Assembly (NCBI GenBank): GCA_948473335.1
Contig: CAOKXF010000001.1
Location: 265,981-329,980 of the forward strand
Origin: an uncultured Clostridium sp.
GTDB taxonomy: Bacteria; Bacillota; Clostridia; TANB77; CAG-508
Length of the DNA stretch: 64,000 nt
Direction of reading: 5' to 3'
Shown: positions 2,583 to 29,100 of the stretch, one piece after another
Layout of the letters: each line of letters starts with the position of its first letter
Position numbering within the stretch: the stretch's first letter is position 1
The notes under the pieces: model-generated
Database searches by the model: none
What the model was told of the DNA's origin: nothing
The model's input: the letters and a program-made list of their open reading frames with translations, nothing else
Position numbers and translations under genes: made by a program

Positions 2583-3770
2583 TTATATTAAACGTTTTGT
2601 TTCTCTTGCGATTACAAGCTCTTCATTAGTTGGAATTACATAGATTTTTACCTTTGAAGAATCTTTAGAAATTAATTTTTCTTCACTTCTAACATTGTTT
2701 CTTTCCTCATCTATATTAACTCCCATAAACTCTAAATTCTTACAAATACCCTCTCTAATTTTTATTTGATTTTCTCCAACTCCACCTGTAAATACTATTG
2801 CATCAACACCATTCATTGCTACTGCACATTTTGCAATATAAGCAGCAACTTCATATTTAAAATGATTCATGGCAGTCAAAGCTCTTTCATCCCCATTATT
2901 TGATGCATTTTCAATTTCTCTAAAATCTGGTGCTAATCCTGACATTCCTTGTACCCCAGATTTTTTATTCAATATATCTTCCACTTCTTGAGCTGTTTTA
3001 TTCTCTTTTTTCATTATATAAGTTACAACTGATGGATCAATATCTCCACTTCTTGTAACCATAGGAATACCTGCTAAAGGAGTAAGTCCCATACTCGTTT
3101 CTACAGATTTACCTCCATTAACAGCACAAATGCTTGAACCCTGACCTAAATGACAAGTTATAATTTTCAAATCTTTAATATCCCTGTTTTCTATTTCAGC
3201 TAACCTATTTGAAACAAACATGTGTGATGTTCCATGAAATCCATATTTTCTTATACCATATTTTTCATAATATTCATAAGGTATTGCATACATATATTTT
3301 TCTTTAGGCATTGTTTGATGAAAAGCAGTATCAAAGACACCTACCATAGGTTTTCCAGACATAACTTTTTTGCATGCTTCTATTCCAATAATTCCTGCTG
3401 GATTATGTAATGGTGCTAAATCTATGCATCCTTTTAAAGTTTCAATAACATCATCATCTATAACAACCGAAGACATAATTTTTTCTCCACCATGAGCCAA
3501 TCTGTGACCTATAGCATTAATTTCATCCAAACTATCAATCACTTTATATTCTGGATTAGTTAATTGTTTCAAAGTAAAGTCAATAGCCTCTTCATGATTT
3601 TTTGCAGAATGAACTATCTCATACTTTTTTCCATTTACTTTGTGTGTTATAAAAGCTTCATCTTCTCCTATTCTTTCATATTTACCAAAAGCCAACACAT
3701 CCTCTGTCTCCATATTTATTAATTGGTATTTCAATGATGAACTTCCACAGTTTAATACTAATATTTTCAT
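2583..3770 (-). CDS. ackA: Acetate kinase
   Basis: 395 aa, MKILVLNCGSSSLKYQL N-terminus. Full-length collinear match to AckA. Confidence 0.92.
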   Translation of the reverse strand: MKILVLNCGSSSLKYQLINMETEDVLAFGKYERIGEDEAFITHKVNGKKYEIVHSAKNHEEAIDFTLKQLTNPEYKVIDSLDEINAIGHRLAHGGEKIMSSVVIDDDVIETLKGCIDLAPLHNPAGIIGIEACKKVMSGKPMVGVFDTAFHQTMPKEKYMYAIPYEYYEKYGIRKYGFHGTSHMFVSNRLAEIENRDIKDLKIITCHLGQGSSICAVNGGKSVETSMGLTPLAGIPMVTRSGDIDPSVVTYIMKKENKTAQEVEDILNKKSGVQGMSGLAPDFREIENASNNGDERALTAMNHFKYEVAAYIAKCAVAMNGVDAIVFTGGVGENQIKIREGICKNLEFMGVNIDEERNNVRSEEKLISKDSSKVKIYVIPTNEELVIARETKRLI

Positions 3771-3818: not shown

Positions 3819-4823
3819 CTATTCAATTATATTTTGTGCTTGTACAGCTGTAATTGCCACTACACCCACTATATCTTCATATGAGCAACCTCTAGACAAG
3901 TCATTTACTGGTTTTGCTATCCCTTGGCAAAGTGGACCATATGCTTCTGCCTTTGCGAATCTCTGCACTAATTTGTAACCAATATTACCTGCTCCTAAAT
4001 CTGGAAAAACCAATATATTTGCTTCACCTTTTAGAGGACTATTTGGTGCTTTAAAATCTGCAACTTCTGGAACTATTGCTGCATCTAATTGTAACTCGCC
4101 ATCTACTAATAATGTTGAATCCTTTTCTTTTACTAAATTTGTAGCCTGTACAACTTTTTCTGTAGCTTCTGAATTTGCACTTCCGTATGTAGAATAAGAT
4201 AACATAGCAATTTTAGGAACACTACCTATTAATTGTCTAAAACTTTTACTTGAAGAGATAGCAATTTCTGATAAAGCATCAGAATTAGGATTTTCATTTA
4301 ATCCACTATCAGCAAAAATAAACGTACCATTTTCGCCATATTCACAATTTGGAACAACCATAATAAAAAACGCAGACACTAATTTGGTGTTAGGAGCTGT
4401 CTTCAATATTTGCAATGCTGGTCTTAAAGTATCAGATGTTGAATGAGCTGCACCTGACACTAACCCATCTGCTTCCCCCAATTTAACCATCATCATCCCA
4501 TAATACACTGGATTTAAAATCAATGCATTAGCTTGCTCCATTGTCATTCCTTTTTCTTTTCTCAGTTCATAAAGTGCTTTAGCATATTCTTCTTTACGAT
4601 TTGAATTTTCTGGATTAGTTATTTGTACGTTCTTTATATCAATATTTTCTTTTTGTGCATATTCATGTATTTTTGCTGCATTCCCTATTAATATTACTTT
4701 TGCAAAATTCTCTGTTGTTATCATTTCCGCCGCCTTCAAAACTCGTACATCTTCTGCTTCTGGTAATACTACTGTTTTAATTTGTTGTTTTGCTCTTTCT
4801 TTTATTTGCTCAATAAATGACAT
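3819..4823 (-). CDS. pta: Phosphate acetyltransferase
   Basis: 334 aa with the Pta catalytic domain. Lies immediately upstream of ackA in the classic pta-ackA arrangement. Confidence 0.9.
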   Translation of the reverse strand: MSFIEQIKERAKQQIKTVVLPEAEDVRVLKAAEMITTENFAKVILIGNAAKIHEYAQKENIDIKNVQITNPENSNRKEEYAKALYELRKEKGMTMEQANALILNPVYYGMMMVKLGEADGLVSGAAHSTSDTLRPALQILKTAPNTKLVSAFFIMVVPNCEYGENGTFIFADSGLNENPNSDALSEIAISSSKSFRQLIGSVPKIAMLSYSTYGSANSEATEKVVQATNLVKEKDSTLLVDGELQLDAAIVPEVADFKAPNSPLKGEANILVFPDLGAGNIGYKLVQRFAKAEAYGPLCQGIAKPVNDLSRGCSYEDIVGVVAITAVQAQNIIE

Positions 4824-4865
4824 TTAACTTCCTCCTTTTTACCTATGTCATTATATATAAAAATT

Positions 4866-4890
4866 GCAAAAAGTACAAGGCTTTTTGCAA
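4866..4890 (-). terminator. Hairpin ttgcaaaaag-N7-ctttttgcaa followed by a T-run on the minus strand
   Basis: Perfect 10-bp stem. The minus-strand read has a tttttat tail. Sits between gerQ and the pta RBS. Confidence 0.4.
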
Positions 4891-4910
4891 TAGTTTTTTT
4901 GGTAGTAAGT

Positions 4911-4946
4911 AAGTGTGTCAGTGGGGACGTTCTTTGTGACACACTT
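4911..4946. repeat. Palindromic repeat element, copy A (aagtgtgtca-gtggggacgttctttg-tgacacactt)
   Basis: 10-bp stems flank a conserved 16-nt loop. Followed by ttttatttcc on the plus strand. Belongs to a 5-copy family (see findings). Confidence 0.7.
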
Positions 4947-5042
4947 TTATTTCCAAATGCAGTTTTATCAATAGAAATATCAGTTTTATATTTTTGATTT
5001 TTTGTCACATTTATGTTTTGTACTTTTATTAATAAAAACGAA

Positions 5043-5348
5043 TTAGAAATATCTTAATGTTTGTGCCATTGGTCTTTGTGCGATAGATACAAATTTAATT
5101 GAATAAATATCGCAATATAATAAATTTGTACTTTCTAACGCTCTTAATAATATATAACTTGCTCCTACTTCTTCTAATATTCCTACTCTGTCCGTTAAAT
5201 TATTTGTTCCTATTAGAAATTCTACTCTTACTAAATGTCCTATATAATTTCTTAAAAACGCTGGAGTATATAAGTTGTTTGTCATAATTTCTGGACTACT
5301 ATTGTTTATAGTAACTCTATCAGTTACTTCTCTTGTTGTTTCATCCAT
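5043..5348 (-). CDS. gerQ: Spore coat protein GerQ (YwdL) family
   Basis: 101 aa. Its C-terminal VGILEEVGASYILLRALESTNLLYCDIYSIKFV aligns with the GerQ domain (rGvieeaGrDhIiLsd...YLLlmiYLdYvtF). Lies downstream of cwlJ, as in the B. subtilis cwlJ-gerQ operon. Confidence 0.55.
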   Translation of the reverse strand: MDETTREVTDRVTINNSSPEIMTNNLYTPAFLRNYIGHLVRVEFLIGTNNLTDRVGILEEVGASYILLRALESTNLLYCDIYSIKFVSIAQRPMAQTLRYF

Positions 5349-5442
5349 ATTTTTTCTCCTTGTATAATATATTTAGGTTTTTAAAAGGTTACCTATAAAC
5401 CTTTGCAGTCAATTATATCTTTCAAGTATATCGATGTTTATC

Positions 5443-5478
5443 AGTGTGTGTCAGTGGGGACGTTGTTTATTGGCACAT
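5443..5478. repeat. Palindromic repeat element, copy B (degenerate)
   Basis: gtgtgtgtca-gtggggacgttgtttat-tggcacat. Same loop as copy A with a partially decayed stem. Confidence 0.55.
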
Positions 5479-5544
5479 AATTATTATAAAAAATTTGCTT
5501 TAATTGATTTACTATATTAATTGATATAACTGCACTTTCAATAA

Positions 5545-5581
5545 AAGTGTGTCAATAATCAACGTCCCCACTGACACACTT
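5545..5581. repeat. Palindromic repeat element, copy C (inverted orientation)
   Basis: aagtgtgtca-ataatcaacgtccccac-tgacacactt followed by tttttt. The loop is the reverse complement of the copy A loop. It abuts the cwlJ stop codon. Confidence 0.7.
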
Positions 5582-5583
5582 TT

Positions 5584-6033
5584 TTAGGTTTGTGAATATA
5601 AACTAGTTGGTCTATAAAAACAATGTTCACCTATACGAGTATGAAATGTGCCTGAGCCATTAGATGGAAAGGTCGAATAGCAAGATGGTCTAAATGGATT
5701 TAGATACCAAAGACAGTCTCCGACTTCATTTATTTTATTTCCTGCTATTGCCCAATCTGCTATTTGATAGTGTTCTTCTGTTGGTGTCATATTATATATG
5801 TTTTGTGAATTATATCTCCCTGCAATTGTTTCTCTTGCACAATCAAACTGTCCTTGTTGAAATATTATATTTCGTATACTTCCTCCTTGTGATATTCTTG
5901 CATATTCTCCGTCTGATACATTTACTCTATTTATTACAATTGTTGCAACTGCTTTCATTCCTGTATCTCCTTCTCCTCCTGCTTCACATTGTATTATTCT
6001 CGCTAATAATTCTCTTTCTGAATATGCCATCAA
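5584..6033 (-). CDS. cwlJ: Spore cortex/cell-wall hydrolase, CwlJ/SleB catalytic-domain family
   Basis: 149 aa. Has the Hydrolase_2-type signature (MMAYSERELLARIIQCEAGGEGDTGMKAVATIVINRV...). Pairs with gerQ downstream. Confidence 0.75.
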   Translation of the reverse strand: MMAYSERELLARIIQCEAGGEGDTGMKAVATIVINRVNVSDGEYARISQGGSIRNIIFQQGQFDCARETIAGRYNSQNIYNMTPTEEHYQIADWAIAGNKINEVGDCLWYLNPFRPSCYSTFPSNGSGTFHTRIGEHCFYRPTSLYSQT

Positions 6034-6097
6034 AAATCACCTCTAATATTTATATTATATTAAAGGTGTTATTATTTTGATACTTTTTTAACATTTT

Positions 6098-6430
6098 TTA
6101 TTCATATTTATTTATGTCGATTTCATTATATACATTATATTCTAACTTATCTGATAATAAACTAGTTAAATTGTTTGATTTATTTATTAAAGTTTCTTTT
6201 TGTGATTTTGTTAAAGTTTTTATGTGATATTCTAGTTTTGCTGCTTGTGAACGTGTTTCAGATTCCCACGCCATTTCTAATTTTATGGCAGTATGATTTA
6301 ATGTATATTTTGCACATTTTTCATTTTTTGTCTTATGTTCTTCAAATCTTCTTTCTAAATTTGATGTCATCCCTGTATATATTGAATTATCCTTACATCT
6401 TAACATATATGTATAATACATTTTTATCAT
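6098..6430 (-). CDS. GIY-YIG nuclease-family protein (UPF0213)
   Basis: 110 aa. YTYMLRCKDNSIYTGMTSNLERRFEEH is the canonical GIY-(x)YTG motif. Confidence 0.75.
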   Translation of the reverse strand: MIKMYYTYMLRCKDNSIYTGMTSNLERRFEEHKTKNEKCAKYTLNHTAIKLEMAWESETRSQAAKLEYHIKTLTKSQKETLINKSNNLTSLLSDKLEYNVYNEIDINKYE

Positions 6431-6472
6431 TCCTTTGTGTTTAATTGCTAATATTTCTATATTGCAATATTT

Positions 6473-7144
6473 TTATATTAATTTTGCTATTAATGCTTTA
6501 ATTTTTATACCTTGTGAACAGAACATCTCCTCATGTTCTGTTCTTACATTTTCAATATTTATATTTTTAATTTCCTCACTATGTAAATCATATGTTTTCA
6601 TTAATATTTTAAAACCGCTTTCTTCAAAATATTTTATACTTGATTCAAATAAATCATTGTCATCTGTTTTGAAATATATTTCTCCATTTTCTTTTAAAAA
6701 TTGCTTATACTTTTCAAGTTGCCTTGTATGTGTTAATCGTTTTTTTCTATGTTTTCCCTTTGGCCAAGGATTACAAAAGTTTATATAAATTCTATCTATT
6801 GAGTCTTGCTTATCGAAAATTAGCAAGATTCTTTCTATATCAAATCTTGTTATTAAAACATTGTTAATTTCCTTTTTGTTCTCTTTATACATAGTTTCTA
6901 TGTTTCTTTTTGCTAATCCTAACATTGCATCTACTAAGTCAATTGCGATATAATTTATTTCTGGATGATTTACTGCCATATTTGCTATAAATTTACCTTT
7001 TCCACATCCTAATTCTAAATATAATGGATTTTCCTTATTTAAAAAGATTTCTTTCCATTTTCCTTTCTTATCTTCTGGATTTGCTATATAAAATTTGCTT
7101 TGTTCTAATTCTGGTCTTGCCCATGGCTTAAATCTAATTCTCAT
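6473..7144 (-). CDS. trmB: tRNA (guanine46-N7)-methyltransferase
   Basis: 223 aa. N-terminus [13 protein letters not shown], and [13 protein letters not shown] motif. Full-length TrmB. Confidence 0.85.
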
Positions 7145-7256
7145 AACACTTTTATTTTATTAGCTTCTATGCTAAATTTTCCTTTCTTTATAACAATTTT
7201 TTTAATTTCCTAATAATACGGTTAGTATCTATTTTATAGTTCTGTAATTCAATATT

Positions 7257-7796
7257 TTATTGTTCACAGTATTGTTTATATAATTTCTTTAGATTTTTCT
7301 TTGTTATAACATTTTTTATACCTTTTTCTGCAACTTGTTCAAATACTTCTGTTAACATATCTGATACGTTTTTATTTATCATTACTCGCTCACGCTCTTT
7401 TTCCCAATATTCGATTTCTGAACTATTTGTCCAATTTTTTCCATTATATGTTATACTTGCTGATAATTTGTCACATACCATTTCTGCTACATATTTATAT
7501 GGAATTATTGGATTTTGTATAGGTGCATTCATATCATACCAATATTCAGAATGATGTTTATTCCTTCCCTTATGGTGTAACCAGGCTTTTGAATATCCAT
7601 TTTCTTTTTTACAAAATAATATAGGGCTTTTTTCCCCATTATAATACTTTATACTTTCCCAAAATTCAATTGGCGAAAATTTTGACATATCATGTTTTAG
7701 TCCTCTTAATGGCATACCTATTTTTGTACAAAATATAAATACTAACCATTTATGTTTTAACACTAATATTGTATGTTTTACTATATTTTTAATCAT
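7257..7796 (-). CDS. Conserved hypothetical protein
   Basis: 179-aa ORF with coding-like composition. No family recognised with confidence. Confidence 0.4.
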   Translation of the reverse strand: MIKNIVKHTILVLKHKWLVFIFCTKIGMPLRGLKHDMSKFSPIEFWESIKYYNGEKSPILFCKKENGYSKAWLHHKGRNKHHSEYWYDMNAPIQNPIIPYKYVAEMVCDKLSASITYNGKNWTNSSEIEYWEKERERVMINKNVSDMLTEVFEQVAEKGIKNVITKKNLKKLYKQYCEQ

Positions 7797-7984
7797 ATAT
7801 TTTCCTCTTTTTTATATTCTTATTAAAATCATCGACTAAGTAGATAAAATTCCTTTATATTTTACCTCATTTTTCCCTTTTTTTCAACATTAATTTGATT
7901 TTTTTGTTATTTTGTGTTAGTGTGTTAAATTATATAATAATTTATCGTTATATATTTCCTATACAGTAAAAAAATATAAAAAGA

Positions 7985-8878
7985 ATGGAGCTAAGAATAG
8001 TTATTATGAATTTACATTATATTTCAGATAATAAATATAAAAATATAAATCAAGTTTTGAATAATGAGTTTAAAATCTCCTCAAGACTTAAAAGTAAATT
8101 GATTTCTAATCAATTAATTTTGCTAAATGGTACTTTTGTTGATACTAGGACAAGTATCTCTAAAGGAGATACAATAGATATTATTTTAGATTACCCAGAA
8201 AATAATTCAAATATTATTGCAACTAATATGTTTCTTAATATTATATATGAAGATGATTATTTATTAATAATAAACAAGCCTGCTGGAATTGCTGTACACC
8301 CTTCAATTTTACACTATGAAGATTCTTTATCTAATGGAGTAAAATTTTACTATGATAAAATTGGACTTGCTAAAAAAGTCCGCCCTGTTACTCGTATTGA
8401 TTTGAATACTTCTGGTCTTGTTGTCTTTGCTAAAAATGAGTTTATACAAGAAAATTTAATTAGACAAATGTCAAATAACAGTTTTAGAAAGATTTATTTA
8501 TGCTTAGCAGAAGGTATTGTCGCTCCTGAAAAAGGTTCTATCAATGCGCCTATTATCAGAAAAAATGACAGTATTATTGAACGCACTATTTCAAATAATG
8601 GTCAATATGCAGTTACTAACTATGAAGTTTTACAATATTTCGAAAAGTATTCTTTAGTGAAATGCATTCTTGAAACTGGAAGGACACATCAAATTAGAGT
8701 TCATTTTGCTTTTATTGGTCATCCCCTTCTTGGTGATTCATTATATGGTAATTCTTCTAGTTTTATTAACAGACAAGCTTTACATTGCTATAATCTTAAA
8801 TTTATTCATCCCATTTCTCAGATTATGCTAAATCTGTTTGCGGATATTCCTGACGATTTTAATAAATTGTGTCAGTAG
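7985..8878 (+). CDS. RluA-family 23S rRNA pseudouridine synthase
   Basis: Motifs HPSILHYEDS, RLDLNTSGLVVFAK and GRTHQIRVHFA. The stop codon TAG (8876-8878) lies inside palindromic repeat copy D. Confidence 0.85.
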   Translation: MELRIVIMNLHYISDNKYKNINQVLNNEFKISSRLKSKLISNQLILLNGTFVDTRTSISKGDTIDIILDYPENNSNIIATNMFLNIIYEDDYLLIINKPAGIAVHPSILHYEDSLSNGVKFYYDKIGLAKKVRPVTRIDLNTSGLVVFAKNEFIQENLIRQMSNNSFRKIYLCLAEGIVAPEKGSINAPIIRKNDSIIERTISNNGQYAVTNYEVLQYFEKYSLVKCILETGRTHQIRVHFAFIGHPLLGDSLYGNSSSFINRQALHCYNLKFIHPISQIMLNLFADIPDDFNKLCQ

Positions 8879-8900
8879 GGACGTTCTTTATGACACAATT
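8865..8900. repeat. Palindromic repeat element, copy D; also the rluA terminator
   Basis: aattgtgtca-gtagggacgttcttta-tgacacaatt followed by ttttatc. It contains the last two codons and the stop of rluA. Confidence 0.7.
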
Positions 8901-8952
8901 TTATCTACTTAAAAGTCCTAAATTGCTTGATACAACTAAGATTAAGCAGAAA

Positions 8953-8984
8953 ATCGTGTCATAAAGAACGTCCCTACTGACACA
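8953..8984. repeat. Palindromic repeat element, copy E (inverted); also the rnpB terminator
   Basis: gtgtca-taaagaacgtccctac-tgacac. On the minus strand it is followed by gattttctgc, immediately 3' of rnpB. Confidence 0.65.
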
Positions 8985-9336
8985 GGTAAATCTGTAAGCC
9001 GGGTTCTGTCTTTTAAAATAGCCATTTATCTAGGATATATATCACTATATATCTCAAGCCACGCAATTTGAAGGTGCCGAGCAAGCTTAATCTTCATTTA
9101 GGTGTTGCCCCAGATGGGGTTTACATGGACCCAATATGTCACCATATCAGCGGTAAGCTCTTACCTCACCTTTTCACCCTTACCAGTTTTCTGGCGGTTA
9201 TTTTCTGTTGCACTTTCCTTAAGGTTTCCCTTACTAGACGTTATCTAGCATCTTTGCTCTATGGGGCCCGGACTTTCCTCTCGTAATTCCTTTCGGAGTT
9301 TTACTAGCGACTATTTAATTTACCTTTTTTGATTAT
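8984..9336 (-). ncRNA. rnpB: RNase P RNA (bacterial RnpB)
   Basis: The minus strand carries the universal P4 motif GAGGAAAGTCCGGGC, plus ACAGAAAATAACCGCC and AGGGTGAAAAGGTGAGGTAAGAGCTTACC. The 3' end is ...GAACCCGGCTTACAGATTTACC. P1 pairs AGGTAAAT (5') with ATTTACCT (3'). A sigma-A promoter (TTGAAA-17-TATAAT, at about 9343-9371) lies upstream. Local GC is much higher than the surrounding DNA. Confidence 0.85.
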
Positions 9337-10731: not shown

Positions 10732-11604
10732 TTAATTATTATTTTTTAAAAAATTTATAATCTCTGTTGCTGCCTTAGCTCCTTCATATACTGCTTTCGA
10801 AATTTGTAATAGACCACCTGTACAGTCTCCAGCAGCATATAAACCTTTTATTGTAGTTTGCATATTTTCATTAACGATTATTCTATTATTTTCGGTTTTA
10901 GCACCAATTTTTTTGGCTAAGTCTACACTGCTTGCAACACCATTAGCAATAAATAATCCATCAATTTGAATTTGTGTATCATTTTTTAGTTTTACAGCTT
11001 TTACTGTATCGTCTCCAATAATTTCTTCTATCTCTTTTTGATTTATCTTCAAATTATCATTTAGTTGAATTTCAGGTGTTATTTCAAATTCAATTGGTTT
11101 TCCATTTGTTAATATTGTAACTGTATTCACAATATTTTGTAAATATTTCGCTTCATGAATTGCATATTTACCATTTCCTAATACTGCTATATTTTTTCCT
11201 CTATAGAAAAATGCATCGCAAATTGCGCAATAGCTTATTCCTTTATTCTCAAAATCTTTTAATCCCTTTATATACGGTAAAGGTCTATTTACTCCTGTTG
11301 CTAATATTACAGTTTTTGCTTCATATTCACTATTATTTGTTGTTACTATGAAATTATTATTATAGTTTATGCTCAAAACTTCTTCTGTTAATATTTCTAC
11401 TTCTAAATTCTTTGCTTGATTTACTCCTGTTTCTAGTATTTTTTCTCCACTTTCTATAATTCCATAATAGTTTTCTACTTTTTGTGCTTTTTTTAATGCT
11501 CCTTCATCTTTACCTATTACAACTACTTTTAAATTTGCCCTTTTTATATATAGTGATGCTGATATTCCAGCTGGTCCCTTCCCTATTATTATAACATCAT
11601 ACAT
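10732..11604 (-). CDS. trxB: Thioredoxin-disulfide reductase-like flavoprotein (short form)
   Basis: 290 aa. Has an FAD GxGxxG motif at the N-terminus and the redox CAIC motif (YCAICDAFFY). Directly upstream of trxA. Confidence 0.7.
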   Translation of the reverse strand: MYDVIIIGKGPAGISASLYIKRANLKVVVIGKDEGALKKAQKVENYYGIIESGEKILETGVNQAKNLEVEILTEEVLSINYNNNFIVTTNNSEYEAKTVILATGVNRPLPYIKGLKDFENKGISYCAICDAFFYRGKNIAVLGNGKYAIHEAKYLQNIVNTVTILTNGKPIEFEITPEIQLNDNLKINQKEIEEIIGDDTVKAVKLKNDTQIQIDGLFIANGVASSVDLAKKIGAKTENNRIIVNENMQTTIKGLYAAGDCTGGLLQISKAVYEGAKAATEIINFLKNNN

Positions 11605-20247: not shown

Positions 20248-20416
20248 TGCTTTTGTTAAAGCTATTTATTGTATAGAAAAATTTTGCATTTTTCTTTTAA
20301 AAACACTATTCAATTTATACTAATCTATACTGCGTGTATTATAAACCTTTTTACATTATTTTCCAATAGCAAAAAATGTCGTAACATGATAACATTTCGA
20401 CATTTTATTAATAACT

Positions 20417-28343: not shown

Positions 28344-29049
28344 AAGTTAATTTTTATAAAAATAACTTTCATTTTTTATTATAAATCGACTTTATTTTAT
28401 TATTCATCCAATATCTTACATATTGGTCAACATTACAAATGTACTACAATTTCACCATTTTGTTGTACATTTGTAAATATTATTTTTGTAGTAACATAGT
28501 ACTTAAATAAAAAGTCATATATCAACTATATTTTTTATATCAATTTTATTTTTACTGTACCATTTACAGTATCGTTTGCAGTATCATCTTTATTAAATCT
28601 TCTTTGTAATATGAGAACATTACTCTAATTTCAACTACTGTTTTTAACTTTATAAAATCAATATAACACATATGAAATAAGGATTTGTTGCACTTTCAAT
28701 CATTTCAAAAATGCTAAATTTAGCATTGCATTTAGTACTACTGTTTGTCAACTTTTTACTTGTAAAATACACAAGACATACTTGTTTTTAGTTTTTTTGT
28801 TAAAATTATTAATTTTTTTGCATTAATTTTTATCAAATATAACAAATTGTACTTGTATAAATTATTTCTTTAGTAGTAGTTAATCGTACAAATTTTTGTA
28901 TGTAAAATAAGTTCGTTTTTTATTTTATGCAACCATTATTCCATACAACTATGATTAGTATGTAAACATTCTAAACTTATTGATTTTTCAATAATATTTA
29001 AGATTATATTTGCCATATTTTTAAGTTTATTTTTACAATTTTTAACATA

Positions 29050-29100
29050 AAAAAAGAGTCAATAGGATAATATTTCTCACTCCAAAATTGACTCTTTTTT
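29050..29100. terminator. Bidirectional rho-independent terminator aaaaaagagtcaat-N23-attgactctttttt
   Basis: 14-bp stems flanked by A6 on one side and T6 on the other. Confidence 0.5.

Follow-up and report, generated by a model that had tools for sequence, protein, structure and literature searches.

Hairpin repeats in a Clostridium contig as likely copies of a REP-like (TIRtron-type) family of Clostridia

The five repeats found in the window (the whole 64-kb stretch of DNA analysed) are likely to belong to a REP-like (TIRtron-type) family of repeats in Clostridia, a reading to which we assign a probability of roughly 0.72. Since relatives of the repeats flank the gene of a RAYT-like tyrosine transposase, the repeats most likely represent small mobile elements. 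The element is probably mobilised in trans, some of its copies now sit where genes end, and the copies in the window look like old, largely static insertions. The family is large and apparently undescribed. The sequence-only reading of this DNA had regarded the repeats as REP-like and probably mobile, not as independent terminators; this is supported by the occurrence of the units throughout Clostridia, by the RAYT-like gene which they flank and by their presence or absence at orthologous sites.

Repeat copies in the window

The repeat is a hairpin of about 32 nt, in which a 6-10-bp stem encloses a 16-17-nt loop, and the 5' half of the loop holds a conserved box, (GT)GGGGACG(G)TT. The window contains exactly five copies, a number far above chance, all of them within 4 kb and within about 3 nt of the places given for them by the sequence-only reading. 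That reader overlooked the architecture of the copies: four of them form two inverted doublets. The features are the following:

Unit A: 4911..4946, plus strand; solitary hairpin, stem AAGTGTGTCA/TGACACACTT, loop GTGGGGACGTTCTTTG, then TTTTATTT; 56.5 bits; -15.3 kcal/mol, z -3.25
Unit B: 5446..5477, plus strand; left arm of doublet B/C; 53.9 bits; degenerate 3' stem strand TTGGCACA
Unit C: 5547..5579, minus strand; right arm of doublet B/C; 59.2 bits; -18.7 kcal/mol, z -5.0
Doublet B/C: 5446..5579, no strand; inverted pair of 134 nt; -62.5 kcal/mol, z -11.2
Unit D: 8867..8898, plus strand; left arm of doublet D/E; 58.2 bits; -15.3 kcal/mol, z -5.2
Unit E: 8955..8984, minus strand; right arm of doublet D/E; 49.2 bits; followed by GATTTTCTG on the minus strand
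Doublet D/E: 8868..8984, no strand; inverted pair of 117 nt between the convergent rluA and rnpB; -61 kcal/mol, z -12.9

The core 15-mer GTCAGTRGGGACGTT was present in all five copies without mismatch (4917+, 5450+, 5561-, 8871+, 8967-), in agreement with the earlier observation of a conserved loop, and no extra match appeared in the window when up to three mismatches were allowed (0.26 hits expected by chance). The stem GTGTCA/TGACAC had been ascribed to every copy and was found in four: the pattern GTGTCA-N(10-22)-TGACAC gave four matches in the window versus none in 100 shuffles, and copy B falls outside the exact pattern because its 3' arm reads TGGCAC. A covariance model, which had been proposed as a check, was run on the window with the filters off. 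The five copies scored 49-59 bits, while the next-best match in the window, an ordinary terminator at 29046-29106, reached only 20 bits. A regular expression for the hairpin plus the box found nothing in the window beyond the known units, and GGGGAC occurs only three times in the 64 kb, each time within a unit.

Each doublet can form one hairpin, with a folding energy of about -61 to -62.5 kcal/mol. The arms of B/C are 40 nt long, 88% complementary and 54 nt apart, those of D/E are 35 nt long, 97% complementary and 47 nt apart, and the two spacers are unrelated to each other. The orientation of the units relative to the genes is mixed. A T-run usually follows the hairpin of a unit, so that an effect of the copies on transcript ends is probable as well.

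Gene ends and orthologous sites

Bases 8868-8878 of unit D (TGTGTCAGTAG) form the end of an RluA-family gene, its final three sense codons plus TAG as the stop, as had been recognised from the sequence, and the stop codon arises from the A of GTAG in the unit. Unit E is sense-oriented where the RNase P RNA gene ends, and the final 6 nt of the Rfam match (8979-9326, minus strand) fall within it. Copy E had been proposed to terminate rnpB. Terminator activity is putative for every copy; a simple terminator scan called copy B alone, and the orientation of the units is mixed. The arms of the doublet co-evolve: D and E both carry CTTTATGACAC in the window and both carry CTTTGTGACAC in strain L121. 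The doublet is present in strains L121 and L123, in L124 (where it is cut by the contig end) and in the 85% identical relative L126, and it is absent at the orthologous site in L132 and L271.

Doublet B/C lies within the 235-nt gap between a cwlJ-like gene and a gerQ-like ORF (5043-5348, minus strand), and unit C follows the cwlJ-like stop (5584) in sense orientation at a distance of about 5 nt; its hairpin is preceded by an A-run and followed by a T-run. Copies B and C had been described as sitting between cwlJ and gerQ. The position is correct. The gerQ label is uncertain: the ORF had no Pfam match and no significant NCBIfam match. It is the conserved partner downstream of cwlJ in the relatives. 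In the related species L266 the gap measures 13 nt versus 235 nt in the window, L270-L272 lack the segment with unit B and the spacer, and an orthologous singlet of unit C is present in L270.

Unit A runs antisense to the gerQ-like ORF and is placed between the stop of this ORF (5043) and the terminator hairpin of the same ORF (4863-4891). An sRNA at 4824-4946 had been suggested on account of copy A. This suggestion found no support: copy A is absent at the orthologous site of the related species L270 and the interval already holds that separate, conserved bidirectional terminator hairpin together with the upstream region of pta.

Because the window copies keep identical sites in strains which are 98-99% identical, nothing points to recent movement in the window. 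Elsewhere, a site at which some Butyrivibrio strains have a singlet is occupied by a doublet in another strain. The species with empty sites are about 80% identical with diverged flanks, and no clean insertion boundary was visible.

The repeat family and its transposase-like neighbour

A search of the relatives for the motif, as the sequence-only reading had envisaged, found it widely in Clostridia, inside a covarying hairpin. Homologous units are abundant in Butyrivibrio, in other Lachnospiraceae and in low-GC Clostridia MAGs, where the stem variants are GTGTCA/TGACAC, GAGTCA/TGACTC and GGGTCA/TGACCC. Among 135 distinct units 94.4% of cells were paired (slid controls, 22-37%) and compensatory changes were seen in four of the eight pairs. 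The model gave 185 matches in the 619 kb searched (window plus related loci). By architecture there were doublets (46), singlets (74) and complex arrays (20); of the 138 clusters, 20 lay at contig ends. Layered palindromes built of units also occur in related genomes. No viral copies of the unit were found.

A putative RAYT-like transposase gene, a search for which had been proposed, was found in the relatives; no such gene lies within the window. In seven distinct related loci a Y1 (HUH) transposase-like gene of about 245 aa is bracketed by units within about 150 nt. Usually a sense unit stands upstream, and the downstream unit is always antisense; upstream antisense units are present in L254 as well, and in L185 the upstream unit is 15 nt from the ATG and the downstream one is located at the stop codon. 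Each of the seven loci has its own unit variant, which is seen next to the gene and also in other parts of the sequenced flanks; in L261 and L254 the 20 kb around are likewise filled with the locus-specific variant. Two loci picked solely for the transposase gene contained 11 and 22 GGGGAC[GC] boxes per about 20 kb. A family HMM matched only in motif-bearing loci and in none of about 107 unrelated control loci.

The proteins of these related loci matched Pfam Y1_Tnp (PF01797) with 42-59 bits versus a cut-off of 23, and an HVH motif (H60, V61, H62) and Y119 of RYILNNP were invariant in 33 sequences. Judged from such profile scores, the putative transposase is closer to the REP-associated (RAYT) than to the IS200 enzymes: NCBIfam REP_Tyr_transpos (NF047646) was the best-matching model (E 4e-11 to 1.4e-17, 43-64 bits, which is below its curated cut-off of 80 bits), and the IS200 model gave about 1e-3. 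A profile search of PDB sequences with the transposase family returned marginal matches only. The C-terminal tail is conserved (GLSxRQIERLTGINR), and its matches to HTH profiles are weak (E 0.004-0.3).

By analogy with TnpA(REP) of E. coli and TnpA of IS608, the Y1 protein would bind the folded unit on single-stranded DNA and read the box; the strand would be cut and rejoined, and units or doublets could thus spread in trans into intergenic sites without target duplication. Unit D would then have replaced the end of rluA, now supplying its stop codon, unit E would have taken over the place of an ordinary terminator after rnpB, and doublet B/C would have opened up the cwlJ/gerQ-like gene pair. 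A more far-reaching proposal, which we consider possible and rather doubtful, is that the Clostridial RayT-like enzymes read the loop box GGGGACG(G)TT of a short hairpin, unlike those of the GTAG-foot REPs; that they also insert new doublets preferentially into the loops of existing units, so that palindromes are layered from the centre outwards; and that the host keeps some of these as gene ends (the rluA stop codon, the 3' flank of the RNase P RNA).

Alternative explanations and known systems

The units might be selected cis-acting RNA elements, that is, intrinsic terminators or stabilising 3' hairpins with a loop bound by a host RNA-binding factor, which were spread by ordinary duplication. 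Of the five window units all but B have a T-run behind the hairpin, three (C, D and E) are sense-oriented at the 3' ends of genes, and in L271 an ordinary terminator follows rnpB where the window has unit E. Elements are also enriched approximately twofold between convergent genes, and the singlets of tandem gene pairs are sense rather than antisense in a ratio of 13:5, which fits selection for a role at the transcript level. However, units A and B are not 3' of any co-oriented gene, 8 of 56 elements lie between divergent genes as in the background, and the doublets put an antisense copy in every transcript. Against it stands also the tight flanking of the transposase-like gene by units, with an own variant per locus. 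In the window RNase P alone reached the gathering score of Rfam, no family corresponded to the repeats, and a search by E-value gave generic long-hairpin matches only (e.g. miRNA precursors), all below the gathering scores. The terminator scan called copy B in a G-T-paired fold; the other copies were not called because their loops exceed the limit of the scan. On balance we regard this explanation as improbable.

Conventional MITEs, i.e. deletion derivatives of a DDE-type insertion sequence which share its terminal inverted repeats, are a still poorer explanation. The doublets do resemble elements of 117-134 nt with terminal inverted repeats of 35-40 nt, but no target-site duplication was found in the flanks read, including those of every doublet examined, the spacers of the two window doublets differ entirely and single units are as common as doublets. 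No DDE transposase recurs beside the units; the neighbours are housekeeping genes, and the only recurring one is the Y1 HUH protein. About as remote, or slightly more so, is the idea that the doublets are invertible DNA switches (invertons) flipping the segment between the arms. Inverted repeats of 35-40 nt around 47-54 nt would suit such a switch, and the minus strand of unit B has a -35-like CTGACA 18 nt from TATACT, upstream of the gerQ-like ORF. Promoter-like sequences were nevertheless not in excess (38 found versus 34 expected from shuffles), no recombinase gene was found nearby, solitary units are common, and there is nothing to invert in the Butyrivibrio doublets, which share all but a centre of 5 nt. 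As to a purely local duplication without wider meaning, the five copies do lie together in a small part of the window, but this explanation is already refuted by the occurrence of the same 15-mer in a covarying hairpin in many other genera and metagenomes.

The REP-like reading can be compared with several known systems. The Correia elements and DNA uptake sequences of Neisseria are short repeats, often inverted pairs, which occur where genes end and can influence transcription. Correia elements differ in their TA duplications and IS-like ends, DNA uptake sequences are far denser, and neither is known to be tied to a Y1 transposase. The ends of IS200/IS605 elements and their miniature derivatives (PATEs) share with the present units the type of enzyme (Y1 HUH), the lack of target duplication and, presumably, subterminal hairpins that are read on single-stranded DNA. 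In IS200/IS605 (IS608) the gene is multicopy and the two end hairpins lie on one strand; the Clostridial flanking units, in contrast, are inverted, the IS200 model fits the protein poorly, and the neighbourhood of the transposase-like gene P0172 is the same across many samples.

With the classical REP/REPIN-RAYT systems (E. coli BIMEs, Pseudomonas REPINs) the family has in common short intergenic palindromes in many copies, inverted doublets which form long hairpins, a preference for gene 3' ends, the lack of target duplication and, in the seven related loci, a RAYT-like gene flanked in inverted orientation by a repeat variant specific to it. A canonical REP, however, has GT[AG]G 0-2 nt 5' of a 7-20 bp stem with a 2-5-nt loop. 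In the single Clostridial unit GTRG, where present, is inside the 16-17-nt loop, and sister variants have ATGG, CATG or ATTG in its place. In the doublets GTRG does precede the arm-to-arm stem, yet it is itself paired. In REPINs the doublet is the replicating unit and has a conserved spacer. The Butyrivibrio doublets share everything but their 5-nt centre, and the spacers of the two window doublets (54 and 47 nt) are unrelated.

The closest likeness is to the TIRtrons and TIRYT described by Di Nocera et al. 2013 (PMC3733652), which Quentin et al. 2018 (PMC6006769) equate with TnpA(Y1) subclass 2.1 and with the RAYT Group 1 that Bertels et al. 2017 (PMC5581495) defined, a group reported from Clostridia. 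Here too the Y1 HUH protein is longer than classical RAYTs and may carry an HTH-like C-terminal tail (its HTH matches are weak), the gene is located between inverted repeats bearing a GGGG-box, and copies of the repeats, in part self-complementary, are dispersed through the genome as single units, dimers and clusters. The Clostridial protein would be placed in subclass 2.1. The published TIRtron examples consulted include no Firmicutes (neither 'Clostridi' nor 'Firmicutes' occurs in PMC3733652), and Quentin et al. (PMC6006769) found no REP-like sequences beside subclass 2.1 genes; unlike in that published subclass, the Clostridial flanking repeats are compact hairpins in high copy number. The TIRtron box GGGGWSAS and the Clostridial GGGGACGT or GGGGACGG agree at positions 1-6 and differ at position 7, while L270 has GGGGACAG, which matches the TIRtron consensus.

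Hairpin units and neighbouring genes in the window

The reading of the window from 4700 to 9200 revealed five copies of a hairpin unit, at the positions where they had been placed by an earlier reading of the sequence alone. The units and their neighbours are the following.

Features around the hairpin units
2583-3770, minus: ackA
3819-4823, minus: pta
4863-4891: separate hairpin
4911-4946, plus: unit A
5043-5348, minus: 101-aa ORF
5446-5477, plus: unit B
5547-5579, minus: unit C
5446-5485 and 5540-5579: arms of the B/C doublet, 40 nt, 88% complementary
5584-6033, minus: SleB/CwlJ-type hydrolase (cwlJ-like)
6098-6430, minus: small stand-alone GIY-YIG protein
6473-7144, minus: TrmB-like methyltransferase
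7257-7796, minus: DUF5662 protein
7985-8878, plus: RluA-family synthase (rluA)
8867-8898, plus: unit D
8955-8984, minus: unit E
8868-8902 and 8950-8984: arms of the D/E doublet, 35 nt, 97% complementary
8979-9326, minus: RNase P RNA (rnpB)

The pattern GTGTCA-N(10-22)-TGACAC had 4 matches in the window and 0 in 100 shuffles, copy B being missed only because its 3' arm is TGGCAC. The 15-mer GTCAGTRGGGACGTT was present five times without mismatch (chance expectation 0.26), and no further window site appeared when 3 mismatches were allowed. GGGGAC occurs only 3 times in the 64 kb (G+C approx. 27%), each time within a unit, and a hairpin-plus-box regular expression found no units other than A-E over the same length. 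A covariance model built from 18 units and run on the whole window without filters gave 49-59 bits for A-E, while the next-best match, at 29046-29106, scored 20 bits and was an ordinary terminator. The count of five in the sequence-only reading thus stands, but the inverted pairing of B with C and of D with E had been overlooked. Single units are predicted to fold with -11 to -19 kcal/mol, while each doublet is predicted to form one long hairpin (B/C -62.5 kcal/mol, z -11; D/E -61 kcal/mol, z -13). The spacers of the two doublets are unrelated.

As had been claimed, D holds the last three sense codons of rluA together with its TAG stop. D and E carry GTAG (window 8876-8878 and 8972-8975) where A, B and C carry GTGG; the A of this motif creates the rluA stop in D and is mirrored in E, and with G the ORF would be six codons longer. 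The last 6 nt of the RNase P match lie within E, C begins about 5 nt past the cwlJ-like stop, and A sits between the stop of the 101-aa ORF and the separate hairpin at 4863-4891. The latter (ATTGCAAAAAG...CTTTTTGCAAT), located between pta and the upstream ORF, has T-runs on both strands and was called on both strands by the terminator scan; it is conserved in the related locus L270 and independent of unit A. The small RNA proposed at 4824-4946 found no support: L270 lacks A but retains this hairpin and the region upstream of pta. The label gerQ is unverified for the 101-aa ORF, which had no Pfam match and no significant NCBIfam match; the ORF that follows cwlJ in a related species shows 61% identity to it. 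On the antisense strand of unit B (window 5412-5454, minus), upstream of the 101-aa ORF, a -35-like CTGACA is spaced 18 nt from TATACT, which hints that the insertion may have supplied a promoter; promoter-like sequences in the region were no more numerous than in shuffles. The GIY-YIG gene, which lies amid the repeat cluster, is conserved in relatives, and no connection of it to the repeats was found.

The unit family and its sites in other genomes

A scan of a genome collection with a 14-base pattern returned mostly chance matches, and true relatives were picked by context. They come from Butyrivibrio sp. NC2007, another Butyrivibrio MAG, several Lachnospiraceae MAGs and two low-GC Clostridia MAGs, and they share the identical 15-mer, compensatory stem changes (GTGTCA/TGACAC, GAGTCA/TGACTC, GGGTCA/TGACCC) and usually a T-run. 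In case of metagenomes, a pattern restricted to window-like units gave 0 matches, and a longer pattern gave at least 120 loci, those listed having 217 core copies in 681 kb (median G+C 0.445). Among the metagenome loci listed there were 46 doublets, 74 singlets and 20 complex arrays, and 20 of 138 clusters lay at contig ends, as is expected for repeats that break assemblies. No copy was found in the viral contigs searched. An Rfam search of the whole window at gathering scores and a permissive search of 4800-5700 returned only RNase P and generic hairpin matches.

In 135 distinct units 94.4% of the stem cells were paired, compared with 22-37% in slid controls, and compensatory changes were found in 4 of the 8 stem pairs. 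Within the unit, conservation is highest in the 5' half of the loop, and the 3' half of the loop is variable. The sequence-only reading had held that absence of the motif elsewhere, or an unconserved loop, would speak against its proposal; the opposite was found, the motif being widespread and the loop best conserved in its 5' half. The anatomy of the unit, its family-wide distribution and the covariation of its stem are established at the level of sequence.

Layered palindromes were also observed, with stacks of 24-25-nt units on one arm and their mirror images on the other (L157:1455-1700, L176:2378-2468, L212:5689-5782, L216:2027-2121, L231:117-227, L248:1341-1469). In L176 and L231 a GTGTGTCA-type doublet is nested in a GTGAGTCA-type unit immediately 3' of GGGGACGTTA. 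The innermost layer is usually less decayed than the outer ones, which suggests that such palindromes may grow from the centre or by insertion into existing loops.

Both neighbouring genes could be called for 56 elements, of which 17 lay between convergent, 31 between tandem and 8 between divergent genes (background 58, 292 and 62). This is about a twofold excess between convergent genes, and divergent promoter regions are not avoided. Singlets in tandem gene pairs were sense in 13 cases and antisense in 5. Among the window copies, sense orientation at a gene end applies to C, D and E but not to A or B. Such mixed orientation and position agrees with a DNA-level element for which gene ends are the most permissive sites, and agrees less well with a dedicated RNA signal. 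The neighbouring genes are ordinary housekeeping genes, and clustering of the neighbour proteins showed housekeeping families only.

Orthologous sites differ in their content of units.

State of the orthologous sites
L121 (approx. 98% nucleotide identity to the window): all five copies at identical sites
L126 (RluA 85% identical): D/E present, left unit decayed, 77 nt from the rluA stop to the doublet
L132 (RluA approx. 62% identical): no repeat, rluA stop and rnpB 3' end 3 nt apart
L270-L272 (approx. 81% nucleotide identity, CwlJ 97%): single unit TGTGTCACGGGGACAGAGATTTTGACACAC where the window has C; spacer, B and A all missing
L266 (CwlJ 82% identical): cwlJ-to-ORF gap of 13 nt with a ribosome-binding site, versus 235 nt in the window

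In L270-L272 an ordinary terminator hairpin follows rnpB in place of D/E. At one Butyrivibrio orthologous site a singlet is found in two strains, a full doublet in the third and a three-layer array in the fourth. These differing states indicate that copies are gained and lost over times comparable to the separation of species. The flanks have diverged too far for the insertions to be reconstructed to the exact base. No target-site duplications were found in the flanks examined; like the presence or absence of units at orthologous sites, this is a result at the level of sequence. Both D/E arms read CTTTATGACAC in the window and CTTTGTGACAC in L121, a joint change expected if the pair is kept complementary. 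The units of the window probably affect transcript ends; E appears to have functionally replaced the rnpB terminator, and B/C seems to have uncoupled cwlJ and the ORF that follows it. As regards the window alone, this is a modest finding of five old copies.

Strains that are otherwise nearly identical are distinguished by short tandem duplications of the unit's 5' arm: GTGTGTCAGT is present twice in copy C of L121 (7554-7604; compare window 5547-5579) and GTGTCAGTA twice in copy D of L124 (1058-1108; compare window 8867-8898), and similar duplications of 8-17 nt were seen in the unrelated loci L006, L019, L031 and L069. In L266, which has no B/C, two tandem hairpins of a further variant (CCATTTGGGACCGGGTCTTTTTGGTAC and ACCATTGGGACCGGGTCTTTTTGGTGC; 10842-10915) lie just past the gerQ-like ORF and were undetected by the covariance model. 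The empty-site control L132 carries a DUF3800-I RNA (Rfam RF02969, 66 bits) at 20285-20411.

A transposase-like gene flanked by the units

Reading of the ORFs adjoining the repeats uncovered a gene, here called RayT-like, which in L197 has a Pfam Y1_Tnp match and a unit about 130 nt upstream. Directly upstream of that unit a tRNA-like sequence and its terminator are located (L197:800-940, minus). Relatives of the gene are present in L226 (96% identical), where a doublet begins 11 nt past the stop, and in L185 (54% identical), where a unit lies 15 nt ahead of the ATG and a doublet starts at the stop codon. The family comprises 1651 proteins at E <= 1e-10, typically of 245 aa and many of them on very short contigs. 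Its H-V-H motif and the tyrosine of RYILNNP are invariant, and it has a conserved tail, GLSxRQIERLTGINR, for which the HTH profile matches were weak. The best-matching model was the NCBIfam REP-associated tyrosine transposase (E 4e-11 to 1.4e-17, under the curated cut-off of 80 bits), and the IS200 model reached only about 1e-3. PDB sequence searches with one RayT-like protein and with a profile gave marginal matches only, and tblastn with Y1 transposase queries (YafM, IS200, IS608) found nothing.

Five more members were then taken, chosen solely by protein similarity. Hairpins of the same design flank all five genes, with an antisense unit downstream in 5/5 and a sense unit upstream in 4/5; the exception is L254, which has antisense units upstream. 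Every locus had a unit variant of its own, as follows.

Unit variants beside additional RayT-like genes
L261: GTGCCAMTGGGGACGGTTCTTTTTGGCAC
L254: GGTGTCATTGGGGACGGTTCTCAATGACACC
L259: TGAGTCATGGGGACGGTTCTCTTGACTCA
L264, L265: GTGTCAATGGGGACGGTTC...

In L261 and L254 the variant of the locus recurs across the surrounding 20 kb, with 11 boxes in L261 and 22 in L254. In L259 (2640-2880) about three tandem copies of the 3' end of the gene with its downstream unit are present. The family HMM matched motif-bearing loci only: there were 0 matches in about 107 unrelated control loci taken from the scan with the 14-base pattern, and none in the 64-kb window. As far as sequence can tell, the association of the units with a Y1 HUH gene is tight and oriented, and the units exist in gene-specific variants. 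A gene between inverted repeat copies, a repeat that also populates the surroundings and gene-specific variants are the signature of REP/RAYT systems (PMC6006769), and this is the combination seen here.

Relation to known repeat systems

Canonical REPs have GT[AG]G at the foot of the stem and a loop of 2-5 nt. Single units here lack this layout and were therefore not filed as classical REPs. Among published repeats they come closest to the TIRtron/TIRYT class of Di Nocera et al. (PMC3733652), whose RAYT-like genes have inverted repeats on either side; many of these repeats carry GGGGWSAS, some are self-complementary, and they are scattered as singles, dimers and clusters. According to Quentin et al. 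(PMC6006769) TIRYT corresponds to their subclass 2.1, which has a C-terminal HTH-like domain and beside whose genes they found no REP-like sequences. The same branch is RAYT Group 1 of Bertels et al. (PMC5581495), who report its occurrence in Clostridia and flanking 16-mers that are only modestly repeated. The position of the box inside the loop and the layered arrays are unusual for the known REP/RAYT kind. A search of the literature on RAYT or REPIN with Clostridia, Lachnospiraceae or Butyrivibrio found no description of these hairpins, and a paper on 5S rRNA expansion segments proved unrelated to them.

Several other readings were considered. The ends of Tn3-type elements show a partial likeness (TCAGTGG..ACG), but terminal GGGG, TAAG and a 5-bp duplication are all missing. 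The density of the units is too low for DNA uptake sequences. CRISPR-like repeats, invertons and operator sites of SinR, CcpA or parS type were dropped as well.

By analogy with IS608 TnpA and E. coli TnpA(REP), the RayT-like protein would bind the folded unit on single-stranded DNA, the conserved box would serve its recognition, and units or doublets would be moved in trans. Nearly all characterised REP/RAYT systems are from Proteobacteria, and for Group 1 or subclass 2.1 the published repeats are loosely defined terminal ones, or none are associated (PMC3733652, PMC6006769, PMC5581495). In Clostridia, abundant rumen and gut Lachnospiraceae included, the units form a compact hairpin family that is easy to model, is linked to genes probably of this branch and offers a substrate for biochemistry. 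Their frequent position at the ends of metagenome contigs suggests that assemblies are broken by them. Annotation calls for caution, since a unit can overlap the end of a gene, provide its stop codon or lie within an operon.

Canonical-looking GTAG palindromes, GTAGGGACGTTSCATGSAACGTCCSTAC, were also seen in cyanobacterial contigs (L041:7466-7505, L056:2740-2790, L082:1400-1440 and 3394-3435). They have GTAGGGACGTT in common with D and E, a likeness which may reflect a distant relationship of the recognition sequences or coincidence.
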